64,000 nt of DNA from an uncultured bacterium. GTDB lineage: Bacteria; Acidobacteriota; Vicinamibacteria; Vicinamibacterales; UBA8438. The position numbers were made by a program, and so were the translations under genes. The stretch is taken from contig CAWWAF010000005.1 in the NCBI GenBank assembly GCA_963934795.1, positions 5,112 through 69,111 of the forward strand. Reading direction: 5' to 3'. Every line of letters begins with the position of its first letter. The stretch's first letter is position 1. This document shows positions 16,142-53,510 of this stretch, piece by piece. The notes below the pieces were generated by a model. It had not been told where the DNA came from. It was given only the letters and a program-made list of their open reading frames with translations, and searched no databases.

Positions 16142-17113
16142 ATGCGCGGTTCAGCGGCGGCATCGAGCTCGACTCGAATGGCAAGGCGTCGGTCGGCGGC
16201 GATGACGGTTCACATCGCCGTGTGGGGTCTGCTGGCGGCCTGCGCGTCGCCGTCTGGCGCACAGACCGCGGACAGGCCTCGTACGGCCTGGAACACGCCT
16301 GACTTCAGTGGATATTGGGAATATCGCAGCAGCACGCCTTTGCAGCGCCCGGAGACGCTTGCAGACAAGGCGGTGTTGACGCCCGCCGAAGCGGCGGCCT
16401 ACCTGCCTCAGCGACTGACCGACATTGGGGCTGAGCGTGACCTGCAGCTGAACGCCGACTGGTGGGAACCAGGAGGACTGACAGACGATCGGACGTCGAT
16501 GATCGTCGACCCACCAAACGGCCGGCTGCCCACGATGACGGCCGACGCGCGGCACCGCGACCGGACGATTGGTCTGCGGTCACGGTCGCGGCCCGCTGAC
16601 GGACCAGAAGACCGAGAACGCTACGAGCGCTGCATCATGGGCCGCACCGTTCCGCTCATGGCGGTCGCTCCGAACCGGCTCGCACAATTTTTCCAGACCC
16701 CCGACCACCTGGTCATCCTGCACGAACAGAACTGGGACACACGGATTATTCGGATTTCTGACGGGCCCCATCCAGCGGATTATGTCCGCCAGTGGCAAGG
16801 AGACTCATACGCGCACTGGGACGGCGATACGCTGATCATTCAGTCCGCGAACTTCAACGGCGCATGGACGCTGAACGGCACCGGGCCAGACATGCGTGTG
16901 GAGGAGCGAATCGCCATCGGGCACAACGGCACGCTCGACTATCGGTTCACCGTCGACGACCCGGCGTCGTTCGCCGCGCGGTGGACGGTCGGGTTTCCGA
17001 TCACCCCCGCCCGTGGCCCGCTGTTTGAGAACGCCTGCCACGAAGGCAACTACAGCATGCCCTTGATCCTGAGCGGGGCCCGGGCCGAGGAGCGGCGCGA
17101 CTCGGCCCGCTAG
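16142..17113 (+). CDS. Secreted hypothetical protein, 'RC...ACHEGN' family (paralog 1)
   Basis: Signal-like N-terminus; PDFSGYW, DPPNGRLP, ERC, WQGDSYAHWDGDTL, ENACHEGNY shared with three other ORFs in the window. Confidence 0.8.
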   Translation: MRGSAAASSSTRMARRRSAAMTVHIAVWGLLAACASPSGAQTADRPRTAWNTPDFSGYWEYRSSTPLQRPETLADKAVLTPAEAAAYLPQRLTDIGAERDLQLNADWWEPGGLTDDRTSMIVDPPNGRLPTMTADARHRDRTIGLRSRSRPADGPEDRERYERCIMGRTVPLMAVAPNRLAQFFQTPDHLVILHEQNWDTRIIRISDGPHPADYVRQWQGDSYAHWDGDTLIIQSANFNGAWTLNGTGPDMRVEERIAIGHNGTLDYRFTVDDPASFAARWTVGFPITPARGPLFENACHEGNYSMPLILSGARAEERRDSAR

Positions 17114-17146
17114 CTGCCCGACGGGAATACCAATCGCGCCGGGGCC

Positions 17147-18001
17147 TCAGTCGAGGGGCCGTGCCACGTAGTCGTGCTTGAAGACCTGGCTCACGGAATA
17201 ATTGAGCGCCTCCAGCTTTCCCCGGGTGACCGCGATTCTCTCCAAGACATCGGGTGACGCGGTCTCGAGGTCTGTCCCCCCCATGATCTCGATGAGAATC
17301 ACCGGTCGGTTACGGCGAATGGTGTCCACCGCCCCGTCAAGCACCTCGTTCTCATAGGTCTCCACGTCGATCTTGAGCAGAGACACCCGCTCAAAATGGA
17401 AGCTGTCGAGCGACCGGAGTTCCGCTGCATCGCCACCGGCACCAACGCCAGTCCCACCCTCGTTACCGGGCGTCGTGGGGTTCATTTCAATGACCCGCGT
17501 GGCACCCGAACCGATGGCCATGCGCATCGCCACAACATTCGTCAGGCCGTTGAGCGCCAGGTTGTGGTGCAACTCCCGATAGATCTTCCGCTGCGGCTCG
17601 AATGCGTAGACGCGACCCCAGGGACCAGCCAGCTGCCCGATCCGCACGGTGTGGGTTCCGATGTGCGCCCCCACTTCGACGACGACTGAGCCGGGGACAA
17701 TGTGCTCTGCGAGGAGATCGAACGAGTGCCGCTCCCACTTGTCGCCCGCGACGATGACCTGCTTGATCATGTCCGCCGGATCGTCGACAAAGAAGCTGCC
17801 GACGTCGGGAACGTCGTACCGCTGGTAGTCAGCGAGGGGAAACGCGTTGAGGTAGCGACGGATTTCTTCGCGATCGTCAAGGAGCGCAGGCGACACCGAG
17901 ACGAGCGGTATCGGCTCGTATGGGGGCGGTGGCGCGTCGCAGGCGGCGACCAGCACCGCGATCACGGGCAGTGGCATCCATCCAGACGTTGAAATCTTCA
18001 T
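17147..18001 (-). CDS. FkbM family methyltransferase with lipoprotein-like signal peptide
   Basis: VEVGAHIGTHT, AFEPQ, LLKIDVETYE, RNRPVILIE; N-terminus VIAVLVAA-C. Confidence 0.85.
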   Translation of the reverse strand: MKISTSGWMPLPVIAVLVAACDAPPPPYEPIPLVSVSPALLDDREEIRRYLNAFPLADYQRYDVPDVGSFFVDDPADMIKQVIVAGDKWERHSFDLLAEHIVPGSVVVEVGAHIGTHTVRIGQLAGPWGRVYAFEPQRKIYRELHHNLALNGLTNVVAMRMAIGSGATRVIEMNPTTPGNEGGTGVGAGGDAAELRSLDSFHFERVSLLKIDVETYENEVLDGAVDTIRRNRPVILIEIMGGTDLETASPDVLERIAVTRGKLEALNYSVSQVFKHDYVARPLD

Positions 18002-18020
18002 CGCGTGCGCGCGCGAGCCG

Positions 18021-20063
18021 TCAGTCGGGCAGCCCGAGTGCGATCAATCCGGGCGGGTCTCCGCCGACCGTCATCCCGATGTACTGCTTGCCATCGAGTA
18101 GGTAGGTCATCGGGTTGCTGACCCCCGCGCCGGGTAAATCGAGCGACCCCAGCTCCTCGCCCGTCGCCTTGTCGTAGGCCACGAGCTGCGGTCCGTCGTT
18201 GGTGCCTCCGGCGGTCAAGCTGTAGAGCAGCAGCGTCTTGGTGACCAGCGGGCCATTGCGCGTCGCATCGCCGCCCAGCGGCGGCAGATCAAGATCGCGC
18301 AACAGCGGATTCCGCCGAAAGCGGTTACCGTCGCCGGTGGGCACCATCCACACGTGCTCCCCGGTGTTCATGTCGATGGCCGTCATCCGCGAGTATGGGG
18401 GCTTGACCAGCGGCAGTCCACGAGCCATGGTCGGCCGCGCCCCTCGACGGTTCTGCACGTAGGCGAGTGTCGACTCGTCCTCTGGCACCGTCTTCCGCAA
18501 CGGCATGACACTCCAGGCGTTGTGCGACGGAATGTAGATGATGCCGGTCTCCGGATCGACCGAACCGCCCCCCCAGTTGCCACCACCGGCCGCGCTCGGA
18601 CGAAACAGCGTGCCAGCGTTGCTGTGCGGCGTGTAGAGCGGGCCCAAACGAAACTCCGACACGGCGTCCATCGCCATCTGTCGTATCTCTGGGGTGAAGT
18701 CGATGAGGTCGTCCACGGTCAGTCCTTGATACTCGAACGGCGCAGGCTTCGTGGGAAATGGCTGCGTCCGTGACGGCAACTCGCCCTCGATGTCTGTGTC
18801 GGTCTCGACCGCCCGTTCTTCGATGGGCCAGAGCGGCTCGCCAGTCACCCGATCGAAAGCAAAGACGAATCCTTGCTTCGTCACCTGCACGACCGCCTTG
18901 ACCTGGCGCCCCTCAATCGTGAGGTCCATGAGGTTAGGGGCCGCCGGCAGGTCGTAGTCCCACAACCCGTGGTGCAGAATCTGGAAGTGCCAGACCCGTT
19001 CACCGGTTTCGACATCGAGCGCCACCAGGCTCTCGGCGAACAGGTTGTCGCCTGGCCGATGACCGCCGTAGTAGTCCGGCGCCGCCGTGTTCATCGGAAG
19101 ATAGAGGTACCCAAGCTCCTCATCGAAGCTCATCTGGGTCCAGACCCCGACCTTGCCGGTCTCGCGCCACGAATCGCCGCCCCAGGTGTCGTTACCAAAT
19201 TCGTCCCCCTGGGGAATCGTGTGAAAGACCCATTTCACGCCGCCGGTCTTCACGTCGAATCCACGCATCCATCCCGGAGGTGCTTCCTTGGTGTTGTTGT
19301 AGGACGAGATCGACGCCGGCGTGATGATGGTGTCGCGGACCACAAACGGTGGCGACTGCACTGAATACAGCAAGGCGTTCAGCCAGTCGCGGCGGCCACG
19401 GTCCGCGCGCGGAATACCCTCCATCAGGTCGACCCGGCCGCCTGTCCCGAAGTCGACGCAGGGCCGCCCAGTCGCGGCCATGACGCAGACAAGATATCCG
19501 TTCCCTGTCCCCCAGACGATTCGCGCATGCTCCGGTCCCTCCCGGTCCCAGTAGCCGACGCCCCGCTGGCTCCAGGTGAGACTCATGGTCGTCGTCCCCT
19601 CCTCGTAGCTCTTCGGGTTGTAGATCCAACGGGTCTCTCCGGTCCGGGCGTCGATGCCGGCGCCGATCGACAGGGGAGTATTCACGTACAGCATCCCGTC
19701 GGCCATGATCGGCGTCGGTTTGAAATTTCGATAGTGGGGCGCGTTGCTGTCGCGCCACCGGTTTGGATCCTCGGCATTCAGGGCGGTGACCACCTCTCTG
19801 ATGGGCGCGCTCCATTCCCCTCCACCCGGTGTCGTTGTACTGAGCATGCCGTCCGGCGACAGCCACCTCCACTTCACTTCCAGTTGTTCGAAGTTGTCGG
19901 CTGTAATCTGCGCGAGCGGGGAGTACTTGGTGCTTCCAAGGTCTCCGCCAAAGGTGCGCCACTCGCCGTCTGCCGGCGCACCCTGTTGGGCGCGAACGTT
20001 GCTAGCGGCAAGCAGGACAACGACGCCAACGAGAACGAGCCGAACCCTTTGCGATAGGCACAT
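18021..20063 (-). CDS. PQQ-dependent dehydrogenase, glucose-dehydrogenase-like, exported
   Basis: EWRTFGGDLGSTKYSPL, TPIMADG, HHGLWDYDLPAAP, KQGFVFAFDRVTGEP, PMTYLLDGKQY. Confidence 0.9.
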   Translation of the reverse strand: MCLSQRVRLVLVGVVVLLAASNVRAQQGAPADGEWRTFGGDLGSTKYSPLAQITADNFEQLEVKWRWLSPDGMLSTTTPGGGEWSAPIREVVTALNAEDPNRWRDSNAPHYRNFKPTPIMADGMLYVNTPLSIGAGIDARTGETRWIYNPKSYEEGTTTMSLTWSQRGVGYWDREGPEHARIVWGTGNGYLVCVMAATGRPCVDFGTGGRVDLMEGIPRADRGRRDWLNALLYSVQSPPFVVRDTIITPASISSYNNTKEAPPGWMRGFDVKTGGVKWVFHTIPQGDEFGNDTWGGDSWRETGKVGVWTQMSFDEELGYLYLPMNTAAPDYYGGHRPGDNLFAESLVALDVETGERVWHFQILHHGLWDYDLPAAPNLMDLTIEGRQVKAVVQVTKQGFVFAFDRVTGEPLWPIEERAVETDTDIEGELPSRTQPFPTKPAPFEYQGLTVDDLIDFTPEIRQMAMDAVSEFRLGPLYTPHSNAGTLFRPSAAGGGNWGGGSVDPETGIIYIPSHNAWSVMPLRKTVPEDESTLAYVQNRRGARPTMARGLPLVKPPYSRMTAIDMNTGEHVWMVPTGDGNRFRRNPLLRDLDLPPLGGDATRNGPLVTKTLLLYSLTAGGTNDGPQLVAYDKATGEELGSLDLPGAGVSNPMTYLLDGKQYIGMTVGGDPPGLIALGLPD

Positions 20064-20173
20064 GACCGGTGACTCCTCACGCGGCCGCCATCGGCCGTCG
20101 CCCGCATACTAGCAGGCTTGGGTTACGGCGGAGGGCGGCCCAAGCGTCCCTGCGCGTCCCTGGTTCTCCCTCG

Positions 20174-20878
20174 TTAACGCGAGACGCCTCCGTAGGCGAT
20201 GTCGGTGAGATGGGCCATGTCGCGGTCGAAGGTGGCCAGGTCGTCTCTACAGAACTCGCTGAGACGAGTGTGCCCACACGCACGAACCAACACCGTCATC
20301 AGCTCCTCGCTCGCGGACAAGAACTTGTGAAGTCGTTGTGCGGCCAGTTCCACCGGCAACCGCGCGCGCAGCTCAGGTTTCTGGGTCGCAATACCGACCG
20401 GGCAGTTATTCGACGAGCACGCCCGCATGCCGATGCACCCGATCGCCTGCATCGACAAATTGGACACCGCGACCGCATCCGCGCCGAGTGCCAGCGCCTT
20501 GGCGAAGTCGGTGTGGGTCCGCAGCCCGCCGGTGATCACGAGCGTGACGTTCCGGCGCCCGCGGGCGTCGAGATGACGCCGCGCCCGGGCCAGGGCGGGA
20601 ATGGTGGGCACGGAGATATGGTCCCGAAACACGACCGGCGCCGCACCGGTATCGCCGCCTCGACCGTCGAGCTGGAGACGCCTGTCTGAAACAGATAGTC
20701 CCACCCGTGCAACCCGCAGATGAAGTTGTCTCCGGAGACGGAACCGTCCGCCATCAGCGCGCCCCGATGCAAACAGCGCCCGTAGAGGACCGAGTGATTG
20801 TCGTCAAAGCGCACGATGACGAGGTCGGCGTTGCTGACTTGAGCGCCGACCATGTCGCGATCTTCACTTTCTCTGCAT
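20174..20878 (-). pseudogene. Decayed Rieske [2Fe-2S] plus FMN-binding glutamate-synthase-like fusion gene
   Basis: Rieske motifs CLHRGA...CGLHGWDY in one frame join at ~20672 to DGRGGDTGAAP...ITGGLR...KALALGADAV...C.GMRACSSNNCPVGIATQ in another frame; the middle of the FMN barrel is missing. Confidence 0.8.
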
Positions 20879-20898
20879 CGCTCTCTCTCCCTATTCGG

Positions 20899-22500
20899 CT
20901 ACGACCCCAGCGCGTACACCATGAGTGTTCCCGCCTGATTGGCGACCGGTAATTCCAATTGCTGTTCCGTAATCAAGTAGTCGATCTCATACTGGCCAGC
21001 CAACAGGACGGCCCTGTCGGCCGTCAGCTCGTTGAAGTGACCGACCGCTTCGACCCGCTCGGCCACGCGACGTGCGATTTCTGGCGAGTAGATAGCCAAC
21101 GCACTGTCCTTGATCAGTTCGAGAAACACATCTCGCCCGCTAGCCGCCCGGACGCTCGTCCCGTAGCGCGCCGCGTGAACCGGGTCAGCCAGGAAATGCG
21201 TGCCTACCGGTTGCGTGGCGGCCCATACCATCAGGTGGTTCCAGTCGCTGTTCTCAAACCCCACCTCCAAGACCGCTCGCTCCGGGCGTTCGATGAAACC
21301 GCGGTAACCGCCGCGGAACATTGCCAACACCACGACCACGCCCACGAGTATTCGGCGGGGTGCCACACGCCCGCCACGCCTGTCGGCCGCGCGCCACGGC
21401 CCCTCGAAGAGCAGCCACGCCAGCAGCAACACACCCACGTAGTCCATCAGCCAGAAGACCCGGTTCACCTGCAGCTGCACCGCCAGCGCCACCGACGCGT
21501 AGGAGAACACGGCCGACCCGAGGAACACGCCCAGCAACAGGCCGCACCCTGCGATCAGCGTGCGCTCCCAGCGACTCGCGATGCCAAGAGCGTGGCGATA
21601 GTGGTGAAGGCCGAAGACCAGCGCCGCGATACCCAAATTGCTGAGCCACGCCGACAGCGGCCACCCTGGCACGACCAGATAGTCCTTGTATTGAACGAGC
21701 AGCTGGAGCCACGCCGGGTCCATCACGACCAGTTGCTCTCGCAGCGGACCTCCCAAGGTCACGGCGCCGACCAGGACGGCGGCCACAGAGCCCACGAGCA
21801 ACGACCTCGCCGAAATGCCCCCATTCAGCAGGGCAGCCCCGCCGACCATGATCGCGAACCAGAAACCGATAGTCGGGTGAATAAGAATGGCGACGACGAC
21901 GAGGGCCAAGGCCAACTTGCCCCGTCCGTGCAGGTACAGCGCCGACGCTGCCAACCCCACCGCGAACGCGAGCATCCGCGGGTGAAAGTAGCCCTCCACG
22001 GAATTGGCACCGGTATCCGGAATGCGGTGTCGGACGGTCATAAGCGCCAGCAGACCACCAATGGTCCACCAGCTTCGATACAGCGCGACACCCAGACCGA
22101 TCAGCGCACCGTAGAGGAGCAGCAGGGTGATGACCTGACTGGTCAGAAACGCCACCGGCAACGAGACCCCGATGGCGGTGACGAGGGGCGCGAACCAATC
22201 GTCGAAAAAGAGAAAACGATCCTGGGCGGCGATCAGCGCGCCATCGTGCGGAAAGAGTCGCGGGTCGATCTCGTCAAGCACGACCGGGATGTAGAACGCC
22301 TGGTCTGACACTCCGTAGTGATACCCGCCCGAATTGAGCGTGACCAGGACGCAGAAGCCGATTGCTCCGGCGATGAGCAGGAGGAGGTGCCGCGGCCGAA
22401 TTGGGAGCCGCCCGACGAAGTGGTCTGCTGATTGCAATGTCGCGATGTCCGCATCCGCGGCGGGCCGCCCGTCGTGAACAACCCCGCAGCATTCTCGCAC
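20899..22500 (-). CDS. Multi-pass membrane protein, possibly GT-C glycosyltransferase-like
   Basis: About ten hydrophobic segments; SDQAFYIP, EGYFHPR, IHPT and a C-terminal soluble domain; start uncertain, function tentative. Confidence 0.6.
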   Translation of the reverse strand: MRECCGVVHDGRPAADADIATLQSADHFVGRLPIRPRHLLLLIAGAIGFCVLVTLNSGGYHYGVSDQAFYIPVVLDEIDPRLFPHDGALIAAQDRFLFFDDWFAPLVTAIGVSLPVAFLTSQVITLLLLYGALIGLGVALYRSWWTIGGLLALMTVRHRIPDTGANSVEGYFHPRMLAFAVGLAASALYLHGRGKLALALVVVAILIHPTIGFWFAIMVGGAALLNGGISARSLLVGSVAAVLVGAVTLGGPLREQLVVMDPAWLQLLVQYKDYLVVPGWPLSAWLSNLGIAALVFGLHHYRHALGIASRWERTLIAGCGLLLGVFLGSAVFSYASVALAVQLQVNRVFWLMDYVGVLLLAWLLFEGPWRAADRRGGRVAPRRILVGVVVVLAMFRGGYRGFIERPERAVLEVGFENSDWNHLMVWAATQPVGTHFLADPVHAARYGTSVRAASGRDVFLELIKDSALAIYSPEIARRVAERVEAVGHFNELTADRAVLLAGQYEIDYLITEQQLELPVANQAGTLMVYALGS

Positions 22501-22583
22501 AGGCCCCGCGCGCGTCGATGTTGTGCCCTGGCCTGACCGGTGCTAGTGTCGTGTTCGATGTATCCCGATACGCTGGAGAATTC

Positions 22584-23885
22584 ATGACGACCAGAAATCA
22601 CCGTTCCATGGTGGGTGCTGTCGCGCTCGCCGCGCTCGGCGTATGCGGCAGTTCGCCCTCTATCGCGGCACAAGGTGTAGATGCGTCCGCGGTTCACGAG
22701 GTTACATTTACGAAGGACGTGGTCCCCATTCTCCAGCGGTCCTGCCAGAGTTGTCATCGAGTCGATTCCATCGCGCCCATGTCGCTCATGACGTATGACG
22801 AGACTCGACCATGGGCTCGATCAATCAGACAGCGGGTGGCCCAGCGCGAAATGCCACCGTGGTACATCGAGCGTAACATCGGCATTCAGAAATTTGAGGA
22901 CGATCCGTCGCTCACCGACGACGAGATCGCCACGATCGTGAACTGGGTCGACGGAGGCACGCGTCGAGGCGACCCGGCCGATCTTCCCCCGCCCAAGGTC
23001 TTCGCCGAATTCGACGCATGGCAGATGGGCGAGCCCGATCTCGTCGTGAACCTGCCGGAGCCCATCGTGGTGCCAGCCGCCGCACCAGATTGGTGGGTTA
23101 ATGTCGACACCGAACCGATTGCACTGACCGAAGACCGGTACCTGAAGGCGGTCGAATCGCGACCGTCCCTCCCTGGCGCCGAGAAGGTGGTGCACCACGC
23201 CGTGGCATACGTCGTCTCGCCGGACGACGAACAGGGATTTCTGAACGAATACGCGGTTGGGAAAAACGCGGACATCTTCCCCGACGGCACGGGGCGGCTG
23301 ATGCGCGCCGGCTCACGGGTCCGCTACAACCTTCATCTGCATGCCATCGGCGAAGAGACTCCGGCCGACGTACAGATTGGGCTCAAGTTCTACCCCAAAG
23401 GCGTGCTACCTGACCACGTCGTGTTTGCCGCCCATGCCGGAGACAGTTACGACACCATCGATATTCCAGCGGGCGACAACAACGCACGCGTCGACGGCTA
23501 TTTTTTCCTTCACGAACCGGCTCAGGTCGTCTCGTTTCAGCCTCACCTGCACAACCGCGGAAAGCGACAATGCGTCGAGGCCATCTACCCCAGCGGGCTC
23601 GTCGAGACCTTGAGTTGCGCGCAGCACAATTTCGCTTGGATGCTCAACTACACCTACCAGGAAAATGTGCAACCGCTCTTGCCGGCCGGGACAAATCTGC
23701 ATCTCATTAGCTGGTACGACAACAGCGATGCGAACCGATACAACCCGGACTCGCGCAACTGGATCGGTTTCGGTAACCGGTCGATGGACGAGATGTCACA
23801 CACCTGGATGAACATCTTCTACATGTCAGAGGACGAGTTCGACCGACGGGTGCAAGCGCGTCAGGCGAAGCGCGCTAGCAACTGA
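22584..23885 (+). CDS. Exported c-type cytochrome fused to a copper type II (PHM/DBM-like) monooxygenase domain
   Basis: Signal peptide; TFTKDVVPILQRSCQSCH heme motif; MPPW; VVHHAV, NLHLH, QPHLHNRGK, DEMSH. Confidence 0.8.
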   Translation: MTTRNHRSMVGAVALAALGVCGSSPSIAAQGVDASAVHEVTFTKDVVPILQRSCQSCHRVDSIAPMSLMTYDETRPWARSIRQRVAQREMPPWYIERNIGIQKFEDDPSLTDDEIATIVNWVDGGTRRGDPADLPPPKVFAEFDAWQMGEPDLVVNLPEPIVVPAAAPDWWVNVDTEPIALTEDRYLKAVESRPSLPGAEKVVHHAVAYVVSPDDEQGFLNEYAVGKNADIFPDGTGRLMRAGSRVRYNLHLHAIGEETPADVQIGLKFYPKGVLPDHVVFAAHAGDSYDTIDIPAGDNNARVDGYFFLHEPAQVVSFQPHLHNRGKRQCVEAIYPSGLVETLSCAQHNFAWMLNYTYQENVQPLLPAGTNLHLISWYDNSDANRYNPDSRNWIGFGNRSMDEMSHTWMNIFYMSEDEFDRRVQARQAKRASN

Positions 23886-24793
23886 TGGCCGCTGCACGTC
23901 GGTTCACGCAGGTCGTGTGCATCTTGGCTGCGGCAGGATGTCTATGGCCCCCGCCACCCGTCTCGGCGCAGAACCTGCAATATTTAAGCGGACAAAACGT
24001 CGTGCCGGCGTTCGAGGGATGGGAGAGGAACGCCGACGACTCATTCACGTTTTACTTCGGTTACCTGAACCGAAACTATCGGGAGGAACTCAGCGTTCCT
24101 CTGGGTCCCGAGAACCGCATCGAACCTGACCACCTGGGTCAGCCCCAACCGACCTACTTCTACCCGCGACGTCATCGGTTTCTCTTCAGCGTGCAGGTCC
24201 CGCCGGACTGGGGAGACCGCGACGTCCTCTGGACGCTCACCTCGGCCGGGAAGACGGAAACCGCCTACGGATCATTGCTGCCGGTCTGGGAGGTCAACGA
24301 CCAGGTCATCTCTGAGAACCGCGCCGGTGGTGGATACGCTGACGACAATCGGCCGCCCACGATCGCCCTTGTCGACGCGGCCGACCGTACGGCGACCGTG
24401 GGTGAACCTCTCTCGTTGACCGTTCGCCTCGGCGACGACGGCATTCCAGAGCCACGCGCAGTTCGCGGCACCAAGGACCCGCGCATTGACGTGGATGCAT
24501 CCGGACGGCCCTTGTTCGGAGCTGGCCGTTTCGGCCGCCGAACCGCGCTGGGTCTGCGGGTCGCGTGGCTGCACTGGCGAGGTCCGGGCACGGTGACATT
24601 CGCGCCCTGGCACATGGCAGGCATCGACGACCGCATGCCCGGCTGGGCCCCTCCCGAAGTGCCTCCGGACGGACGAACCAGCACGACGGCCACCTTCGAC
24701 ACACCCGGCACCTACGTGGTGCGGGCGATGGCAGACGACGGCTATCTGTCGGCGCCGATCGACATCACAGTCACAGTCCACGAGCCGCGTTGA
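23885..24793 (+). CDS. Secreted hypothetical protein with C-terminal Ig/PKD-like fold, coupled to the monooxygenase
   Basis: TGATG overlap; signal peptide ending VSA-Q; GQNVVPAFEGW, FGYLNRN, QPTYFYPRR, ATFDTPGTYVVRAMADDG. Confidence 0.75.
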   Translation: MAAARRFTQVVCILAAAGCLWPPPPVSAQNLQYLSGQNVVPAFEGWERNADDSFTFYFGYLNRNYREELSVPLGPENRIEPDHLGQPQPTYFYPRRHRFLFSVQVPPDWGDRDVLWTLTSAGKTETAYGSLLPVWEVNDQVISENRAGGGYADDNRPPTIALVDAADRTATVGEPLSLTVRLGDDGIPEPRAVRGTKDPRIDVDASGRPLFGAGRFGRRTALGLRVAWLHWRGPGTVTFAPWHMAGIDDRMPGWAPPEVPPDGRTSTTATFDTPGTYVVRAMADDGYLSAPIDITVTVHEPR

Positions 24794-24879
24794 CGCTGAC
24801 GGCGTGAGTCACGCCCGCCCAACGAATCAGCGAGGGGCGCGCGATGCCCCCGTCCTTCGCATCATTCAATTGGTGCTGC

Positions 24880-24923: not shown

Positions 24924-24976
24924 GGAGTGGGGCCGCGACGCGGCGGCGCGGGGTTCTGGGCGACGTCGCGTCTCAA

Positions 24977-25533: not shown

Positions 25534-25539
25534 GGGATG

Positions 25540-33099: not shown

Positions 33100-33115
33100 A
33101 CATGGAGGTAGACCT

Positions 33116-40626: not shown

Positions 40627-40924
40627 AACTCCCCGTAGCCAACCCGTCGGCCGGCACACTCAAATATCGCGATGGAACCACTGTAGTGGCGGGCGACGGG
40701 TAAATCAACACCGTTCGACTCGGCGGAATCGTCCACTGGCGGCGTCCTTGGCTCACCCCTGCGACCGCGACACGGCGCGGTCACCGTCTTACATGGTCTC
40801 GTGGTCAATCCGAGCGGCACCATCGATATCGGCGAAACCCTGGAAACGACCGCGTCCAGCGAACACCCCCTTGTGCCGACGGGAATGCTATCCTGACGAC
40901 GGTTCTCCCCACTGAGGTATCTGT

Positions 40925-44022: not shown

Positions 44023-44040
44023 CGGACCGCCCGCCCCGGC

Positions 44041-45456: not shown

Positions 45457-45532
45457 GGAACGCCTCGGTGGCGGTGAAGGGACGGGCCCGAGTCGCTCTC
45501 TCGGTGACCGTCACCGGGGCGCGAACCAGCCC

Positions 45533-46549
45533 TCAACGACCGTCCACTGCCGCGTCCGCCAACCGAGCAGTTCGGAGCATGCCGCCCATCGAGACATTGC
45601 CTTCGTGACAGGCGAATTCGAAGAGCGTCTGGTCGCGGCGCTTCAACGGGATCTCCGCCGTCCACGGTGACTCCCAAGTGGTGGGGTCAGTGAATGTGAG
45701 CTGATACAGGATGGTGTCTGGCCCGGTCCGCGTGAACCGCTCGACGAGGTGCAACTCGCCGGCGGAACCGTAGAAGTAGCTACCAGACGCGAAGTTTCGC
45801 GTCTCGACCACCAGCGTGTCGCCATCCCAGTGGCCCCGCGGGTCGCCGTTCCACTGCCGGATGTTCTGCGACAGGTGTGGGTGTCCGTCGAGCGCGATCA
45901 GCCGGGCGTCATGAAACGCTTCACTCAGGAACGCCAGATGATCCGGGGTCTGCACGATTTGATAGAAGGTGTAGGGGCCCGAACCGAAATTCCCCCCCAG
46001 CCTCGGCACGCCGGTCGTCACGCAACGGTGAAAGTTGTTCAGGTCCTCTGGACCGGTCTTGAACTCCCAGCCGGTGTCCACACGCGCCTCGCGCGCCTGC
46101 CCGGCTGCGGTTAGGGCTGGAATGCGACCGTCGGGCGGGTCGATGACCTGCGACGTCCTGTTCGTGAACTCCACATCGACCATCCCAAGAGAGTTGCTGG
46201 TCGAGGACGGACCACCGTAGGTATCAACGTCATTCAACGCCGCGAAGAACGCCCCTTCCGGCGTCGTGAAGGCGCTACGGCCGTTCTGGAAAATACGGCC
46301 CGCGCGCGCGCGGAGCGTCGCGACCTCTTCATCGGTCAGAAACTCGCGCCCCTCGAAAACCGGCGGACGCTGCAACGGCGTGGCAGTGTTGCTGAGCCAG
46401 ACGCCTTGCAGATCAGGCCGCCCGTCGGACAAGCGAGGCGGGGTCCAGTCCTCAGCCGACTCGGTCTGCGCACCGGCGGGCACGACCGCACACAGCAACC
46501 CGATCGACGCCATCACCACCACGACGCGAGCCAGACCACTGAAGCACAT
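45533..46549 (-). CDS. Secreted hypothetical protein, 'RC...ACHEGN' family (paralog 3)
   Basis: DGRPDLQGVW, TPLQRP, DPPDGRIP, HRC, WNGDPRGHWDGDTLVVET, FEFACHEGNV; AAGGAGG Shine-Dalgarno. Confidence 0.8.
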   Translation of the reverse strand: MCFSGLARVVVVMASIGLLCAVVPAGAQTESAEDWTPPRLSDGRPDLQGVWLSNTATPLQRPPVFEGREFLTDEEVATLRARAGRIFQNGRSAFTTPEGAFFAALNDVDTYGGPSSTSNSLGMVDVEFTNRTSQVIDPPDGRIPALTAAGQAREARVDTGWEFKTGPEDLNNFHRCVTTGVPRLGGNFGSGPYTFYQIVQTPDHLAFLSEAFHDARLIALDGHPHLSQNIRQWNGDPRGHWDGDTLVVETRNFASGSYFYGSAGELHLVERFTRTGPDTILYQLTFTDPTTWESPWTAEIPLKRRDQTLFEFACHEGNVSMGGMLRTARLADAAVDGR

Positions 46550-46691
46550 ACGCCCCTCCTTCGGTTGCGGCCATTCTATGGCACACCGCTCGCTTCGCCT
46601 ACCGCCGTGCCGACGCTCGACGCCTCCTGGTATCCGAGAGAGAGCCCATGAGCAGACTCACCCGCCGGGGCGGTCCCGGCCATCCAGTGTC

Positions 46692-49483
46692 TCAGAACCG
46701 GAACAAGCGGGTGAGCTTGATAACGAACGCCCGATTCTCGAGCGTCGGATACCGGGGCGAGAGCGTGTCACGCTCATCCGTGTACACGACGAAGAGCTCA
46801 CTGCCCGGCAGATACTCCCATCGAAAGCGGACGTTCGTGCCAAGTGAGTCGGCCCCCGAGTTGTATTGCAGAAGAGCAGACACGAACATCCGTGGCGTGA
46901 GCGTGTAGGTGCTCCGGGCCGCCACGACCTCGGTGGTGAAGGCACCCTGCGGCAGGTCGATCCAGTTGAGCGATACCGACGGCTCGACGGTCAACCGGGG
47001 CATCAGCCCGATCCGGCCGTTGAAGAAACTGACACTGGTCCGGTCGCCGCTAAAGAAGCTTCCGCGGTCGAGCGCCAGCGCCCCGGACCACGGCCGCTGC
47101 TGGGCGAGAGCGTAGACGACCCGGGTGTTCACGAACGAGTAGCCGCCCACCGGAATCGACACGCCACTGGCGATCTCGAACGGCGCTTTCAAGAACTCGT
47201 AGCTGTCGGTCACGCCGGAATAGAACCGGTCGCCGTTCTCGAGCTCAATACCGAAGAGCCCCTGCTGGATGCGCGTCTCGAGCATCCCGGCCCCATCCGT
47301 CGTGTAGTCGAACGAGCCCTCCCACAGGAACTTCCGGATGGCAGCGATCGACCGGGGGCGCGGACTGAAACGGAAGGACCCAAAATTCCGCCGAAAGTCG
47401 TCTCGGCGGAGGAATCCGACCTCGGGGTTGAAGTTCGCCCCGACGGCCAACCGCTCGGCTACGACGCCCAGGTGTCGCCGCTGTAGTCGAACTGCGCTTG
47501 ATAACTGATGTCATCCCCGCTCACATCAGGCGTCTGGGTGCGAGCCAGGTAGGTATTCACGTTCAGGTTGTCGAAGAACGAAAAGACGCCGTCCACGCCG
47601 TAGGTGCTGTTGGCGCCGCCGCCGTCGATGGCCACGGACCGCCGCGCGACCAGAGCGCCCACGGTACTCCGGCGCAGCACATCGCGTTTCACGCGAGCGA
47701 CCGCGAAGTTGGTCCCGAGGGCGCCAGCCTCGAGGTCCTCGCCGGTCTGCACGTCCAGCAGTCCGATGCTGTATGGCCCTGCCCGTCCGGTGAGCCGCCC
47801 GCCGCCCTGAATGGGTACCGCGCCGTCTTCAGACACCCCGATTTGCCGGCTGAAGAACATGACGGGCGCCGTCCCCCCGAATCCCTGCCCGCTGAAGAAG
47901 TAGGCCGTGGGATTCGGTCGAAACCCGCCACCGAAATCGAAGATACCCTGCCCTTCCAGGAAGAACTCCCGCTTCTCCGGGTAGAACAGGCTGAAGCGCG
48001 TCAGGTTGACTTGCTGCTCGTCCACCTCGACCTGCGCAAAGTCGGTGTTGTACGTGAAATCAGCCGTCAGTCCCTGCGTCACCCCGTACTTGACGTCGAA
48101 CCCGACATCCCCGGCCAGTTCGTTGCGGAAGGTCGGCACCGATGCCAGGTTGGTCGTGGCGTCAGCAATGGCATACGTCTTCAACTCGAGGCGCGTACCG
48201 GCTTCCGGCACCTCGAGCCCAACGAGCGTCGCGGCCGACGACAACTTGAACAAACCAGCGAAGGAAAGCGCGGCCGGGATCGGCGTCAAGAACGAAATCT
48301 CGTTCTTGGATGCCGCTCGGCGCTGCACGTTGAAGCCCCAGATCTGCTCTGGTCCGGCGCCATAACGCAGCGACTTGAACGGCACCGCCATCTCGACCGT
48401 CCACCCGCCGTCGAACCGGCCGGTGCGCACGTCCCATACCGTGTTCCAGTCGCGGTTCGGTGTCCGCTCGTTGGTGATCGTCGCGTCGAAAAGACCGCCC
48501 AGGGGGTTGGTGATGAAATTGAACGCGCTTCGCCGGTCGTAGAAAGTGTCGAGTACGACCCCAAGCGTCTCGTTGCCGAACATACCGGCGGCGTCACGCT
48601 TCATCTCGTTCGCAACTAGGCGGTCGGGAAACTCGCTCCAACACCGCGCAGCGATATACAACATGTCGTCGTCGAACAGTACCCACAGCTCGGTCTGGTC
48701 GGTCGCCGGCGCACCTTCGTCCGGCTCCTGCTGGATGAAATCGGTGACCGGGTCCACGTCCGCGTATACCCCTTCGTCGAGGAGGCCATCGAGCTGCAGG
48801 GGACCGCCCAGCCGTACGGCGCGCATCGTCATCCGGCCCTGCGAGTCACGCGCCACCACCGCTGGCGGCGCCGGCGGCGGCGGGCCGTCGATGATGGCGG
48901 ACCGTGTCATCGCGAAGCCACCGGTTCCCGGCCGCGATTCCACCGGCGCGGCATCGACGTTCGGCGACGACTCGGCGCGCGGCTCAGCCCGCTTGAGGCG
49001 GCCGGCGACACCCTCTTCGCCGCCACCGGGGACGGGAGCGGCGTCCCCCATCGTCACCTGGCGTCCGAGCAGGCCAGCCAGCCGCGCCGCCAGCTCGTCC
49101 TGCAACGCGAACAGGTCGCTGACGACACCGTCGATTTTCACGGCGTCCTCCATCGGTCCGACAACCCCATCGACCAACGTCGCCGTAATCCGCACGCGAT
49201 CGCCAATCCGCTGGTAGCTCCCCCGCACGCGCGGCCCCACCGCTCCATCTCCTGTGTCGACGCGGCCCCCGAGGTCGGCCGCCACCGCCTCGGCGATACC
49301 GCGTCCGATCCACTCGTCGGCGGCGGCGCCACTCAGATTCTCGAACGCCTCGACCACCACCGACGGCGCCGCCCCACCGCCAGCCGAACCACGCCCCGTC
49401 TGCGCGGACGCCGCCCCAGGCGACGCAAGCGTCGCCGCGACGACCAGGCACACTGTCACGACGTTCGTCTGTCTTCGTATCAC
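46692..49483 (-). pseudogene. TolB-N-like + CBM9-like + DUF5916-like outer-membrane protein split by a 1-nt frameshift (pseudogene or sequence error)
   Basis: ORFs 47459..49642 and 46692..47450 join as DYSGDTW-G-VVAERLAVGANFNP if one G is added at 47467-47469; motifs DFAQVEVD, RFSLFYPEKREFFLEG; C-terminal FRF; start inferred. Confidence 0.75.
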
Positions 49484-49550
49484 GGGGGGCACGGGAGGAA
49501 GCTTTCGGGGACGGCCAAACGTAGTAGTGTACCGATTTTGAAGGGGGAGC

Positions 49551-50519
49551 ATGCTTACTGACCAGCCACGCCGCACCGCCGCCCGGCTTCCCTGGATCTT
49601 GACGGGCGTCTGTGTCGTTGCCGTGTGCCTGACCTTCGCCACCGTCGCGGCTCAACCGTCGCCGGAGCGTCTCAACCCGCTGGTCGCCAAGCTGGCCGGG
49701 GGCGACCGCGCATTCGGGGTCAGCACCTACGACCTCTCACTCGAGAACGCGCGGTCACTCGCTCGGTCCAACCTCGACTATGTCTATGTCGACATGGAGC
49801 ACGGCCCGATGGACTTCGCCGCGTTGCAGGAGTTCCTGCTGGGTCTGACGGACCGCGCCGCCGTAGCCGAACGCGGGAGCGTGGCGCAAAGCCTGACACC
49901 ATTGGCCCGCCTGGCACCCTATGGCCGTGAGTCCCCGCAATGGGCCGTGAAGCAGGCGCTCGATATCGGCGTCATGGGATTGATTTTCCCCGCGATCGAC
50001 ACCCCGGACCAGGCGCTCCGTGCGGTGCAGTCGATGCGATACCCGCAGCGCCGTGACGCCCCCTACCCTGACCCGCCCGGACAGCGGGGCTCAGGACCGA
50101 CAGCCGCCGCCTGGTTCTGGGGACTATCGACTGGCGACTACGTCCGTTACGCCGACACGTGGCCGCTCAACCCAGCGGGGGAACTGGTGGCCATCATGAT
50201 GATCGAGTCCACGGAGGCGGTCCGCAACGTCGAGGCGATTGCCGAGGTCCCAGGCGTCGCCGGCTTCTACCTCGGTCCCAGTGACCTGTCCAATTCGCTG
50301 GGCCTTCCCCGCGACGACCCGCGCGTCGAGGCGGCGATTCAAACGGTGGTCGACGCCTGCCAAGGCCACGGAATCGCATGCGGCATCACCGCCAGCGCGG
50401 CCGACATGCCGCGCCGAATCGAACAGGGCTTCACCATCCTCGGCGGGGGCCGCGCCGGAGGCGGTCTTCCCACGGCGGTCGACGCTGCGGTCGCGGCTGG
50501 CCGCGCCGTGCCCGACTAG
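49551..50519 (+). CDS. HpcH/HpaI aldolase/citrate-lyase family protein with signal peptide
   Basis: YVDMEHGP, KQALDIG, MRYP, MMIES, YLGPSDLS; N-terminal hydrophobic segment ending TVAA-Q. Confidence 0.85.
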   Translation: MLTDQPRRTAARLPWILTGVCVVAVCLTFATVAAQPSPERLNPLVAKLAGGDRAFGVSTYDLSLENARSLARSNLDYVYVDMEHGPMDFAALQEFLLGLTDRAAVAERGSVAQSLTPLARLAPYGRESPQWAVKQALDIGVMGLIFPAIDTPDQALRAVQSMRYPQRRDAPYPDPPGQRGSGPTAAAWFWGLSTGDYVRYADTWPLNPAGELVAIMMIESTEAVRNVEAIAEVPGVAGFYLGPSDLSNSLGLPRDDPRVEAAIQTVVDACQGHGIACGITASAADMPRRIEQGFTILGGGRAGGGLPTAVDAAVAAGRAVPD

Positions 50520-50652
50520 CGCTGCGGCAGTTCCCCGGGGGAGCACGGGCTAGACACCCACCTGCTCAGCGCTCCCAGGCCGGGTCCGACCCGCGCACAA
50601 CTGGCCCGTCCATGGCTGGTCCTCGGTCGACGCTCACAGCAGTGCCACCCAG

Positions 50653-52359
50653 CTATGGAAGCGCGTAGACGAAGATGCCATTCCCTGCTCGAGGGTTCTT
50701 CATCTCCGGCAGGAGATCTCCTGGGAGCAAGCTGGTCCAGCTTGATCCGCCGAGCGGGCTCCCCGCCCCGAACGCCACGTATTGGCGCCCGTCGACGGCA
50801 TACGTGATCGGATAGCCATTGGCCATGGTGGAGAGTCGGCTCCGCCAGAGCTCCTCGCCGGTCTGCGCGTCATACGCGAACACGTAGCGCTCCCAGTCGC
50901 CTATGAACACGAGACCGCCTGCGGTGGTCAGCGCAGCGGTGTTGTAGGGCGCTCGACGGCGCTGCTTCCACAACGCCTCTCCCGTACGAATGTCCAGGGC
51001 CTGGAGTTCGCCGAGCTGGTCTGGCGCATCCGGATGAAAGTGGTTCTGACGATCACGAACACCACCCGTCCCGCCGCCGCCGAGACGTTGCTCGACCGGC
51101 AGGAACGCGGCAGTCTCGCAGTTCAGGTTCAATGGAATATACAGGGCGGTGGTGTCCGGGTGATAGGCCATCGCCCGGAGGCTCTTGAAGCCGCCGGTGC
51201 TCGGGCAGAAATAGAGTTCCTCGCCCACGTCCGAGATCATGTCCTCGCGATGGGTAACGGCACCAGTTTCCGTATTGACGTCGACGATGTTCTGGTAGCC
51301 GAGGTCGATGGCGTTCTGGTACTGGCCATTGGCCCGATCAAGTTCCCACAAGACGCCCAACTTGCCCATACTGAAGACAGACTGCTTGCCGTCGTAGTCG
51401 ATCAGGATTCGCTCGAACGTCTCGTCCATGTCGTGGCTGTCGCCAGGAATGTGCTGGAAGTACCACTGCATCTCGCCGGTGGCCGGGTCTAGCGCGAGTG
51501 TCGAGTTGCTGTAGAGTGCGTCGCCGTCGGTGCCCCGGGCGTCACGCGACCACGGCTTGGCCTGCGAGGTGCCGTAGTAGACCAGCCCAGTCACCGGGTC
51601 GTAGCTCCCGGGAATCCAGGCATCGCTGCCGGCGCGCATCAGCAAGGGCAGGTCGCCCCAGGTATCGCCGCCACGCTCGCCAGGGCGGGCGACGGTTGAT
51701 GTCCGCCAGAGCACCTGCCCGCTGCGGCCATCCACGCCGATGATGTAGCACGTGTCCTCGCGGAACCGCTCGCAGCCGCGGAGCCCGGCCACGACGACGC
51801 CATCGGCGATCACCGGACCGCTGGAAAAGCCATAGCCTTCCTGGTCTGGGGGGGCGGCTGGCGTGTCGTAGCGCACGACTCCTGTGCGCGCATCGAGACC
51901 CACCACATGCGCGTCGACGGTATTCAGGATGACCAGATCCTCGTAGATGGCCAGACTCCGCATCTGCGCGCCTGGCCTCCGGCGCTCATCCATTTCGTAC
52001 CGGAACTCCCAGATGAAGTCGCCGTTCCGCGCATCGAGCGCCTGCACGACATTGCCCGGGTTGGCGATGTACATCGTTCCGTCGTGCACCACTGGCGTAG
52101 TCTGCGACACCCCTGCCTCGAGGCCCCAGGCCCACGCCAGCTGCAGGTCGCCGACATTACTCTTCTCGATCTCGTCGAGTGGGCTGTAGCCCCAACCGTC
52201 AAGCGTGCGTCGCCAGCTCAACCAGTCGCCATCATCGGGGTTCTGCAGAACCGCGTCCGTGACGGGGGTGAAGTTCTCGATCTGCGCCTGGGCCGGAACG
52301 GCCGCGGCGAACACGAACGTGGCACACGCGAATAGCGTACGGCGTCTCTTGGGCGACAT
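50653..52359 (-). CDS. PQQ-dependent dehydrogenase, alcohol-dehydrogenase-like, exported
   Basis: DWLSWRRTLDGWGYSPL, TTPVVHDG, AWIPGSYDP, WYFQHIPGDSHDMD, LTTAGGLVF, PITYAVDGRQY. Confidence 0.88.
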   Translation of the reverse strand: MSPKRRRTLFACATFVFAAAVPAQAQIENFTPVTDAVLQNPDDGDWLSWRRTLDGWGYSPLDEIEKSNVGDLQLAWAWGLEAGVSQTTPVVHDGTMYIANPGNVVQALDARNGDFIWEFRYEMDERRRPGAQMRSLAIYEDLVILNTVDAHVVGLDARTGVVRYDTPAAPPDQEGYGFSSGPVIADGVVVAGLRGCERFREDTCYIIGVDGRSGQVLWRTSTVARPGERGGDTWGDLPLLMRAGSDAWIPGSYDPVTGLVYYGTSQAKPWSRDARGTDGDALYSNSTLALDPATGEMQWYFQHIPGDSHDMDETFERILIDYDGKQSVFSMGKLGVLWELDRANGQYQNAIDLGYQNIVDVNTETGAVTHREDMISDVGEELYFCPSTGGFKSLRAMAYHPDTTALYIPLNLNCETAAFLPVEQRLGGGGTGGVRDRQNHFHPDAPDQLGELQALDIRTGEALWKQRRRAPYNTAALTTAGGLVFIGDWERYVFAYDAQTGEELWRSRLSTMANGYPITYAVDGRQYVAFGAGSPLGGSSWTSLLPGDLLPEMKNPRAGNGIFVYALP

Positions 52360-52514
52360 AAGGACCTCCTGGAGCCGAAACGTGAGACCAGATACTGAAG
52401 GACACTGATGAACGATGCGGCGAATTGTACCGTGGCCGGACGCGAACGCCGAAACGGCGCGCTCGCATCAGCAAGCGCGCCGCTTTGTCTCCCCGCACAT
52501 CGTTCGGCCGCTCG

Positions 52515-53510
52515 CTACTGACCGGCCTCTTCCTGACGGGCGCCGCCGAGCGCGTTCGGTACCGAGTAGTTCCCTTCGTGGCAGGCGTACTCGAACTGGA
52601 GATACTCGTCATCTCGGTTGAACGGGAACGCCGCGGTCCAGGGCGCGGTATAGGTGTCCTCATCGTCCATCCTCACCGAATAGCGAATCTCGTCCGGACC
52701 GACGACGGTGAACCGCTCGACCATGTGCTGCTGCTCGGACTGCCGAGACCGCGTGCCCGCGGTTGGGCCGCGCATGTTCTTGACGGCTTTGAAGTTTGTC
52801 GACTCGACGACCAGGGTGTTCCCTTCCCAGCGCCCGCGTGGGTCGCCTTCCCACTGCTTCACCTTTGTGTCGGCATGTGGCTCGTCGATCGGGATGATCC
52901 GGACGTTGTGGATCATCTCGCTGTGAATCGTGACGTAGCCGGGCGACTGCAGAATCAGCGTGCCGTTGTTGTACTCGGTGGGCATCATCATGCCGAGCAC
53001 GCCGCGAGAGATGCACCGGTCGCCCGATTCCATATTCCCGGCTTCGTCGTGCAGCTCCGCCATGGCCATGGCCACAGACTCCCGGGCGTTGGCGGTGGGT
53101 GCCGGAATACGGCCGTTCGGTGGGTCCACGATGATCGACGCCTGACCGATATCGTCCGGGGTCTCCCAGTACCAGTCGAACCAGTAGGTGCCGTAGCCAC
53201 CGACCCCGCCCGCGTTCTCCTCGTGCCCCTTCCACTCCGACCCCGCGATGCGCCCTTCGCCGCGCGCCGTCGCCCGCTCCTGCAATTCCTCAGGCGAGAG
53301 CTCTTTCCCGGCGAGTTCCTCCGGCAATTCGAGCGGGGTGAATATCGCTCGCGAGTTGTTCCACATGCCGGTGATATTGGGCTGGCCATCCGCCAACAGC
53401 TCGGGCGTATACCCTGACGCCCCGGGGGTATTCTGCGCAGCTGCCGGCGACGCCGACGCGACCATCAATCCACCCGCCAACGCTGCGACGGTGAGTAATG
53501 CACGATTCAT
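52515..53510 (-). CDS. Secreted hypothetical protein, 'RC...ACHEGN' family (paralog 4)
   Basis: DGQPNITGMW, DPPNGRIP, GDRC, WEGDPRGRWEGNTLVVES, FEYACHEGNY; lies between two PQQ genes on the same strand. Confidence 0.8.
   Translation of the reverse strand: MNRALLTVAALAGGLMVASASPAAAQNTPGASGYTPELLADGQPNITGMWNNSRAIFTPLELPEELAGKELSPEELQERATARGEGRIAGSEWKGHEENAGGVGGYGTYWFDWYWETPDDIGQASIIVDPPNGRIPAPTANARESVAMAMAELHDEAGNMESGDRCISRGVLGMMMPTEYNNGTLILQSPGYVTIHSEMIHNVRIIPIDEPHADTKVKQWEGDPRGRWEGNTLVVESTNFKAVKNMRGPTAGTRSRQSEQQHMVERFTVVGPDEIRYSVRMDDEDTYTAPWTAAFPFNRDDEYLQFEYACHEGNYSVPNALGGARQEEAGQ

Follow-up and report, generated by a model that had tools for sequence, protein, structure and literature searches.

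Four genes in a 64,000-nt stretch of DNA from an uncultured marine acidobacterium (termed the window, that is, the whole stretch analysed) encode putatively exported proteins of about 330 residues that, judged by sequence, belong to an unnamed and very large family and lie among genes for pyrroloquinoline quinone (PQQ)-dependent dehydrogenases. A previous sequence-only reading of the window had proposed that they are periplasmic partners of these quinoproteins, acting as an accessory subunit, a cofactor or metal chaperone or a redox relay. In the analysis reported here, the tie to quinoproteins is real but loose and clade-dependent, and it lies within a much broader role. We give even credence to the view that the family, whose core is predicted to form a beta-barrel similar to that of fatty acid-binding proteins (FABPs), is a general periplasmic accessory module rather than a subunit dedicated to quinoproteins. 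On this view, PQQ dehydrogenases would be one recurrent client among many secreted enzymes, and the pattern in the window would arise because they are also the second largest family of this genome.

Paralogs 1 (16142-17113, plus strand, 323 amino acids) and 2 (40925-41911, plus strand, 328 amino acids, GTG start) are followed by paralogs 3 (45533-46549, 338 amino acids) and 4 (52515-53510, 331 amino acids), both of which are encoded on the minus strand, a detail left unstated in the previous reading. In an alignment, the four proteins were 34-38% identical to each other (35-36% to the first sequence) and had 54 invariant columns, which include all motifs listed previously (G..W, DPP.G..P, R-C, GD....W.G.TL and E.ACHEGN). 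A joint profile matched each paralog at E-values of 1e-145 to 1e-153, far above chance. The signal-like N-termini described earlier were recovered as a hydrophobic stretch ending in A/L-x-A-Q in all four paralogs, and a crude test for a hydrophobic h-region was positive for 55 of the 60 full-length paralogs of the genome. The description of the family as unnamed was correct, because no Pfam, NCBIfam or PDB sequence match was obtained: searches of Pfam and NCBIfam with the four paralogs returned no family at E ≤ 1 except for one chance match to a signal peptide, and a search of PDB sequences with the four-protein profile returned no chain at E ≤ 10.

The genomic context was quantified in the whole assembly (3.87 Mb, 96.5% complete), to which a crude gene caller was applied (3316 genes, 91% coding). 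After all-against-all clustering, the barrel family formed the largest paralog cluster with 69 genes, followed by the PQQ-type dehydrogenases with 66 genes, each of the two families accounting for about 2% of the genes. Labels were permuted over the gene order in 1000 shuffles for the 69 family genes. A PQQ gene was located at ±1 gene in 6 cases (expected 2.6±1.6, shuffle maximum 9), within ±2 genes in 14 cases (expected 4.9±2.1, maximum 13) and within ±4 genes in 22 cases (expected 8.9±2.8, maximum 21). In a distance-based test, 21 of 64 family genes lay within 3 kb of a PQQ gene (expected 7.4±2.6, maximum 17). A second family gene was found at ±1 gene of 17/69 family genes (expected 2.5, maximum 12). 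Genome-wide, there are seven adjacent family-PQQ pairs. As an in-genome yardstick, dedicated partner families reached 28-41-fold over expectation (21/25 and 16/20 cases), whereas the family-PQQ association amounted to 2.9-fold, a value comparable to that of the barrel family with a metallo-beta-lactamase (MBL)-type cluster (3.7-fold) or of PQQ genes with DUF5916 (3.8-fold). The 106 non-family genes flanking the 69 copies comprised ten PQQ-type, four DUF6152 and three MBL genes as well as two each for epoxide/alpha-beta hydrolases, NHL proteins, amidohydrolases, M28 and M20 peptidases and VOC proteins; among 106 random control genes, five were PQQ-type.

The breadth of the association was apparent from domain fusions. 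The barrel domain was detected at E ≤ 1e-10 in 588 proteins of 575-2000 amino acids, of which the 120 listed were tallied, with partners taken from a precomputed Pfam column. These comprised SGNH esterases (32), NHL-type propellers (14), VOC proteins (8), DUF2911 (8), Big_7 (7), PQQ dehydrogenases (6), amidohydrolases (5), tannase/feruloyl esterases (5), leucine-rich repeats (LRR; 5), ankyrin repeats (4), alpha/beta-hydrolases (3), M28 peptidases (2) and prenyltransferase-like repeats (2), in addition to eight single cases and 11 proteins without a Pfam partner. Non-PQQ partners, mostly hydrolases, thus make up 114 of the 120 listed fusions, and at least 15 domain types were represented overall. 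The barrel was positioned C-terminally in nearly every class (SGNH 32/32, NHL 14/14, PQQ 5/6), a CHEGN-like motif was retained in 115 of the listed proteins, and tandem double barrels occurred in seven. Four of the six PQQ fusions include a cytochrome c domain. These fusions are considered genuine, because in five of the six the domains are not separated by a signal sequence and the barrel starts at its mature end. The neighbours of stand-alone copies partly mirror the fusion partners (MBL, hydrolase, NHL, amidohydrolase, M28, VOC).

A small gene cluster found beside family genes was identified as DUF6152 (PF19649, E about 1e-30). All five clustered DUF6152 genes of this genome adjoin family genes, compared with an expectation of 0.2 and a shuffle maximum of 3 at ±1 gene, and the cluster of 69 genes that holds the window paralogs also includes the long barrels next to DUF6152. 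In total, PF19649 gave seven matches in this genome (contigs C82, C23, C3, C13, C109, C6 and C69) and none on the contig of the window (C5), where none of the four genes has a DUF6152 neighbour. At one locus on contig C23, two VOC/glyoxalase-barrel fusions of 580 amino acids (1447-3186 and 3964-5709) flank a DUF6152 gene (3262-3693) and are preceded by a short barrel paralog. The phyletic distribution was determined in multi-genome searches that scored 6-18 candidates per genome; candidate counts serve as a rough proxy for copy number, and the genomes include relatives, which are not independent observations. Of the 201 genomes sampled from the phylum, 18 carried the family, 61 PQQ-type genes and 18 DUF6152. 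All 18 family-positive genomes were also PQQ-positive and 17 were DUF6152-positive; conversely, 17 of the 18 DUF6152-positive genomes carried the family. In an independent gammaproteobacterial order (121 genomes), the family was present in 15 genomes, DUF6152 in 16 and both in 13, the three DUF6152-only genomes being weak single matches. Presence or absence of PQQ-type genes is uninformative in this order, because they were found in 94 of the 121 genomes. In the PQQ sample of each group, one genome flagged as unpublished (G049 for the phylum, G220 for the order) was PQQ-positive and family-negative; no conclusion is built on either. The near-perfect phyletic partner of the barrel family is therefore DUF6152 and not PQQ. 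The expansions of the family and of PQQ genes nevertheless coincide in two phyla: the five highest PQQ candidate counts in the gammaproteobacterial order (73, 70, 62, 60 and 46) all belonged to genomes with expanded long-form barrels, whereas genomes with expansions of only DUF6152 and short barrels had few PQQ candidates (G280, 10; G292, 6; G232, 4). Among the genomes of the phylum, those with one DUF6152 gene had a constant gene trio that encodes a short barrel, a long barrel and DUF6152.

The family is enormous. In a database clustered at 90% identity, all 8000 of 8000 scored candidates were significant (at least 8000 members), and 24,379 clusters at 50% identity were retrieved at E ≤ 0.001 (2,368 at 1e-30). 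The few names supplied by the sources read 'hypothetical protein' and came mostly from metagenome-assembled genomes (MAGs) of Acidobacteria/Vicinamibacterales. In the ESM Atlas, the closest clusters were all unnamed, and the nearest named clusters (Glyoxalase, DUF3471 and DUF6152, at 0.75-0.81) are leads only. In the literature library searched, no paper contained the term DUF6152, and nothing relevant was listed for the CHEGN motif or the barrel family.

The structure of paralog 2 was modelled with AlphaFold2 from a 126-sequence alignment, yielding a confident model (pLDDT 86.3, pTM 0.84) that consists of an N-terminal strand, helices and then eight more strands. Three fold searches, one of them independent of Foldseek, agreed on a calycin barrel of the FABP or intracellular lipid-binding protein (iLBP) type. 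FABP5 (4azq) was superimposed at Z 8.2 with a root-mean-square deviation of 3.5 over 117 of 136 residues, and Oplophorus luciferase (5b0u_B) likewise at Z 8.2; both top matches aligned over 115-117 residues, about 85% of the FABP chain. The Foldseek probability was 0.99-1.00 (E 2.5e-3), and 339 of 997 chains scored Z ≥ 5. The core is thus predicted to be a FABP-like beta-barrel with helical inserts, a claim of fold likeness and not of kinship, since a Z-score near 8 is at a level that the tool calls common.

Conservation was evaluated in 625 distinct domains with an overall identity of about 35-45% (residue numbers refer to paralog 2). Both cysteines of the pair C160 and C308, which lie 148 residues apart, were present in 622 domains, and 417 domains contained two cysteines and no more. 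Ten polar residues (R159, Q181, E191, R197, E257, R258, D275, H309, E310 and N312) were each kept in 608-624 domains (≥97%). The near-invariant cysteine pair and the ten polar residues imply that all paralogs have one conserved polar site in common. Besides R197 and R258, Y269 was conserved as well.

In the window, the stop codon of paralog 2 overlaps the start codon of a gene for a soluble PQQ-dependent dehydrogenase (41911-44022, plus strand, 703 amino acids; full-length propeller, PF01011, E 5.5e-177) within the sequence TGATG at 41909-41913 (plus strand), in agreement with the translational coupling described previously; this enzyme would be one client neighbour. A second overlapping family-PQQ pair, with an overlap of 4 bases, was found on contig C9. 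Paralog 4 is co-oriented with both flanking PQQ-type genes, as stated before, and is separated by 87 bp from a PQQ-dependent dehydrogenase gene upstream (53598-55595, minus strand, 665 amino acids) and by 155 bp from a gene for a shorter PQQ-type propeller protein downstream (50653-52359, minus strand, 568 amino acids). Paralogs 1 and 3 do lie one gene away from PQQ genes: an FkbM-type methyltransferase gene (17147-18001, minus strand) intervenes between paralog 1 and a convergent PQQ-dependent dehydrogenase gene (18021-20063, minus strand, 680 amino acids), and a DUF3179 gene (44041-45456, plus strand) between the coupled dehydrogenase gene and paralog 3. The PQQ proteins of the window scored under the cut-off of every curated NCBIfam PQQ subfamily and, by their sequences, are probably soluble propellers of an uncharacterised type. 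A 727-amino-acid DUF5916/CBM9-like protein is encoded at 47459-49642 (minus strand), and it is the 15-member paralog cluster of this protein that is enriched near PQQ genes as given above.

Neighbourhoods in other genomes were sampled by sequence patterns for relatives of paralog 2, for genes similar to its coupled dehydrogenase gene (PQQ2-like) and for paralog 1; the numbers for these samples refer to the matches listed. Among 80 loci with paralog 2 relatives, a PQQ gene lay within 300 bp in two and another family gene in 26, and ten PQQ genes lay within 1 kb, corresponding to a density of 0.063/kb at 0-1 kb vs 0.019/kb at 1-8 kb. Reciprocally, a family gene was found immediately upstream of 2/72 and within 1 kb of 10/80 PQQ2-like genes. 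For paralog 1 orthologs, PQQ genes were present within 600 bp in 1/17 and within 2.5 kb in 2/17 cases, and 63 more distant loci, likewise among the matches listed, included three with a PQQ gene within 600 bp, 23 with another family gene and six with a DUF6152-like gene. These samples are incomplete, because the reciprocal test missed true pairs of paralog 2 and PQQ2 genes at four loci (L424, L425, L426 and L435). The same four loci contain the interleaved family-PQQ cluster of the window, and the family-PQQ pair is preserved there as well as at L086 and L156; it is kept in several genera of the bacterial family, beyond the closest relatives. Orthologs of paralog 3 had a PQQ gene within 2.5 kb in 7/17 cases, and in four other genomes a DUF6152 gene was found no more than about 2.6 kb from the paralog 3 ortholog, the distance being about 100 bp or less in three of them.

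For paralog 4, a quick IQ-TREE phylogeny (LG+G4) was computed from 81 orthogroup members with paralogs 1-3 as the outgroup. In a gammaproteobacterial clade of the paralog-4 type (support 99), 15 of 16 loci were PQQ-linked: a PQQ gene lay on the same strand at a distance of up to 1.7 kb, and three different gene arrangements were seen. The one remaining locus is cut off by the edge of its contig. The window's own subclade (support 96) showed PQQ linkage in 7/8 loci and the remaining Vicinamibacterales members in 1/57. Mapping of PQQ linkage onto the tree required at least five state changes, compared with a shuffled mean of 20, and none of 500 shuffles gave a value as low. PQQ linkage of the paralog-4 type is therefore clade-bound. 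The gammaproteobacterial MAGs at L295-L311, including Pseudohongiella and OM182, carry paralog-4 relatives that form operon-like clusters together with a single PQQ dehydrogenase gene or a pair of them. Overall, a real PQQ link exists in some clades, namely in the paralog-4 type of Gammaproteobacteria and in the window's lineage, as well as in the co-expansion in two phyla. PQQ genes near family genes exceed the permuted expectation in this genome and recur in certain clades, whereas most orthologs of paralogs 1, 3 and 4 elsewhere are devoid of a PQQ neighbour.

No match to PqqC or PqqE above the cut-off was obtained in the 96.5% complete genome, which carries 66 PQQ-type dehydrogenase genes, and the organism apparently depends on imported PQQ. 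In one report, Vicinamibacteria encoding the PQQ importer PqqU are described as lacking PQQ synthesis (PMC12124388). With neither PqqC nor PqqE above the cut-off, imported PQQ would have to be loaded into 66 apo-enzymes.

If the barrel family is a general accessory module, the trio of a short barrel, a long barrel and DUF6152 would have been its ancestral unit. The long barrel may then have multiplied in some lineages to dozens of 'orphan' copies and become fused, mostly at the C-terminus, to unrelated secreted enzymes: PQQ dehydrogenases, esterases of the SGNH, tannase and alpha/beta types, peptidases, amidohydrolases, VOC enzymes and lactonase-like propellers. The conserved polar site, presumably located in or at the mouth of the barrel, might hold a chemical group common to the substrates or products of these enzymes, with carboxylates as the likeliest candidates by analogy with FABPs, which hold fatty acids. 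Specificity would be set by variable residues, with the cysteine pair possibly serving as a disulfide staple, and the barrel would capture or hand on small molecules beside the periplasmic enzyme that it accompanies.

Several points weigh against this proposal. The capture of ligands, and of carboxylates in particular, is proposed by analogy, and the fold matches are at the common level noted above. A set of ten polar residues that hardly vary would be no less expected of a catalytic centre, or of a site for a fixed cofactor or metal, than of a binding pocket, and fusions to LRR, ankyrin and Ig-like repeats are at odds with a role as an enzyme accessory. The PQQ link of the gammaproteobacterial paralog-4 clade (15/16), the interleaved cluster recurring across genera, the PQQ genes near 7/17 paralog 3 orthologs and the coincidence of the five top PQQ counts among the 121 genomes with expanded long-form barrels also speak for a real, specific bond of part of the family with quinoproteins. 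Alternatively, the barrel itself might be a new periplasmic catalytic domain that uses its conserved Cys, His, Glu and Arg residues, with many substrate-specific paralogs acting before or after hydrolases and dehydrogenases in the breakdown of organic matter. Retention of each of the ten polar residues and the two cysteines in ≥97% of 625 domains that are otherwise only about 35-45% identical is typical of catalytic sites, and the fold class does include enzymes, for example the Oplophorus/NanoLuc luciferase, with matches at Z 7.8-8.2. Fusions to non-catalytic repeats (LRR 5, ankyrin 4 and Big_7 7 of the 120 listed) and the seven tandem double barrels would also be sensible for an active domain. 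Nevertheless, no similarity to any characterised enzyme family was detected in the Pfam, NCBIfam and PDB sequence searches, two invariant cysteines in an exported protein are likelier to form a disulfide than to provide a nucleophile, and the data suggest no reaction, so that we rate a catalytic barrel as rather unlikely. A bolder version of the idea, which we regard as a long shot, would make the barrel a catalytic or cofactor-bearing periplasmic domain that ancestrally worked with the His-His-tipped DUF6152 and carried out one conserved step on the reactive products (aldehydes, lactones, quinones or acids) that esterases, amidases and PQQ dehydrogenases set free. Expansion to 30-160 copies per genome would then form, together with the quinoprotein expansion, a new two-component strategy by which abundant marine and soil heterotrophs oxidise dilute organic matter outside the cytoplasm.

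The narrower proposal that the window copies, or at least paralogs 2 and 4, are dedicated physical partners of the adjacent quinoproteins, in any of the roles named at the outset, draws on the two overlapping gene pairs (TGATG in the window, 4 bases on C9), on the pair kept at six loci in other genomes, on the operon-like linkage of the paralog-4 type (15/16 gammaproteobacterial loci, 7/8 in the window's subclade) and on the cytochrome c-PQQ-barrel fusions, which mostly have no signal sequence between the domains (5/6). The need to load imported PQQ into so many apo-enzymes points in the same direction. Against it stand the mere seven adjacent pairs for 69 family and 66 PQQ genes, the lack of nearby PQQ genes in 56 of the 57 other Vicinamibacterales paralog-4 members, in 15/17 listed paralog 1 orthologs and in 10/17 paralog 3 orthologs (within 2.5 kb), the 114 listed fusions with non-PQQ domains and the large DUF6152/short-barrel expansions in genomes with few PQQ candidates; in addition, delivering just one cofactor or metal is hard to square with the existence of 69 diverged paralogs. 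A complex prediction for paralog 2 (residues 31-328) with its coupled dehydrogenase (residues 26-703) returned a score of 0.00 against a mark of 0.32, which in the tool's own terms is no evidence either way. Of the original proposal, an association with PQQ enzymes has thus held up (roughly 3-fold enrichment with 14/69 within two genes, fusions, clade-wide linkage and co-expansion), whereas its specificity has not (6/69 adjacent vs 2.6 expected, 2.9-fold vs 28-41-fold for dedicated partners, mostly non-PQQ fusions, DUF6152 as the phyletic partner), and dedicated partnership appears distinctly improbable. Two hugely expanded families, each with about 2% of the genes, could also merely fall close together: 69 and 66 copies among about 3316 genes would produce 2.6 adjacent cases and 4.9 within two genes, the observed adjacency of 6 lies in a range where shuffles reach 9, and the neighbour census (10 vs 5 of 106) is not decisive alone. 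Such coincidence is already disfavoured and seems very improbable, since the 14 cases within two genes exceed all 1000 shuffles, the 21/64 within 3 kb exceed the maximum of 17, PQQ density peaks close to listed paralog 2 relatives elsewhere, domain fusions exist and linkage is clade-wide in Gammaproteobacteria. Attachment of haem through the single cysteine at A-C-H or a nitrobindin-like site was considered as well and dropped, as there was no support; a role as a lanthanide, calcium or PQQ chaperone is argued against by the 69 diverged paralogs and the hydrolase fusions.

The family can be compared with several systems. Its predicted core superposes on nearly whole chains of iLBPs (FABP, CRBP and CRABP) and on Oplophorus/NanoLuc luciferase of the calycin superfamily. 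iLBPs are ten-stranded antiparallel beta-barrels with a helical lid; FABPs are small (about 130 amino acids), cytosolic and devoid of a signal peptide, and Arg and Tyr residues within the barrel anchor the carboxylate ligand. In contrast, the barrel proteins have no detectable sequence relationship to FABPs (Pfam/NCBIfam, PDB), comprise 323-338 amino acids with signal-like N-termini that suggest export, contain, besides long helical inserts, a CHEGN segment plus helix at the C-terminus as well as their own invariant cysteine pair and polar set, and are bacterial, with up to dozens of copies per genome. A second system is the undescribed periplasmic barrel/DUF6152 module, to whose long barrel the window proteins are homologous and whose DUF6152 occurs in the same genome and has nearly the phyletic distribution of the family; the window genes differ as 'orphan' long barrels that stand among PQQ genes without a DUF6152 neighbour. 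Known accessory proteins of PQQ dehydrogenases are MxaJ/XoxJ, the small subunit MxaI and cytochrome cL/XoxG. The barrel proteins resemble them in their presumed periplasmic location, in adjacency to quinoprotein genes in some lineages and in the occasional fusion to cytochrome c-PQQ proteins, whereas they belong to no common sequence family, have a predicted barrel fold, lack a CxxCH motif, are mostly not encoded beside PQQ genes and are mostly fused to hydrolases. A functional analogy only is seen with carbohydrate-binding modules, as the barrel, too, is appended, mostly C-terminally, to unrelated catalytic domains and also stands alone; its fold and conserved site are unrelated, and stand-alone barrels far outnumber fused ones.

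The question is thereby narrowed from a quinoprotein partner to a general enzyme-accessory barrel with one conserved site. About 2% of all genes in this marine acidobacterium belong to the family, which is expanded likewise in Gammaproteobacteria and Gemmatimonadota. If the function of its tens of thousands of unnamed clusters were known, a large block of 'hypothetical' genes could be annotated at once, and it might become clear how substrates or products are handled in oligotrophs that import PQQ and have dozens of dehydrogenases and hydrolases in the periplasm. Tractable cases are the coupled pair of the window and the paralog-4-type PQQ operons of Pseudohongiella-like Gammaproteobacteria.

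The locus occurs in marine and seawater metagenomes from several studies. In the region 40600-55700, short contigs from four metatranscriptome libraries gave partial coverage of paralogs 2, 3 and 4 and the PQQ genes, and in one RNA run 11 of 12 pieces were ≥99% identical, with DNA carry-over being possible in these libraries. One RNA piece (53519-53724) spans the PQQ gene's end and part of the spacer, with 9 bases left to the start of paralog 4. No RNA contig of the four runs covered 46648-49671 or bridged the 41911 junction by 31 letters, and neither result was used as evidence.

The families of two further gene sets in the window supplied the in-genome yardstick given above. A set of genes for a DUF1592/PSCyt multidomain cytochrome-like protein, a DUF1552 (HXXSHH) protein and an ankyrin-repeat protein is present in two copies, one on the plus strand (25657-28047, 28044-29390 and 29495-30985) and one on the minus strand (38143-40659, 36788-38440 and 35232-36788) with a cytochrome c gene alongside (34450-35235, minus strand). 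Genome-wide, these families were found together within two genes in 21/25 and 15/20 cases, 28-37 times the expectation, and the set is a second expanded, uncharacterised periplasmic module. Two adjacent genes on the plus strand (22401-23885 and 23885-24793), which have no Pfam match, fall into two paralog clusters (20 and 16 members) whose genes were neighbours in 16/20 cases, about 41 times the expectation, and thus represent an unnamed expanded pair. A 176-amino-acid open reading frame at 20174-20704 (minus strand) aligned with the conserved region of glutamate synthase over its final third only (profile positions 232-367 of 369) and may be a gene fragment or have a mis-called start.

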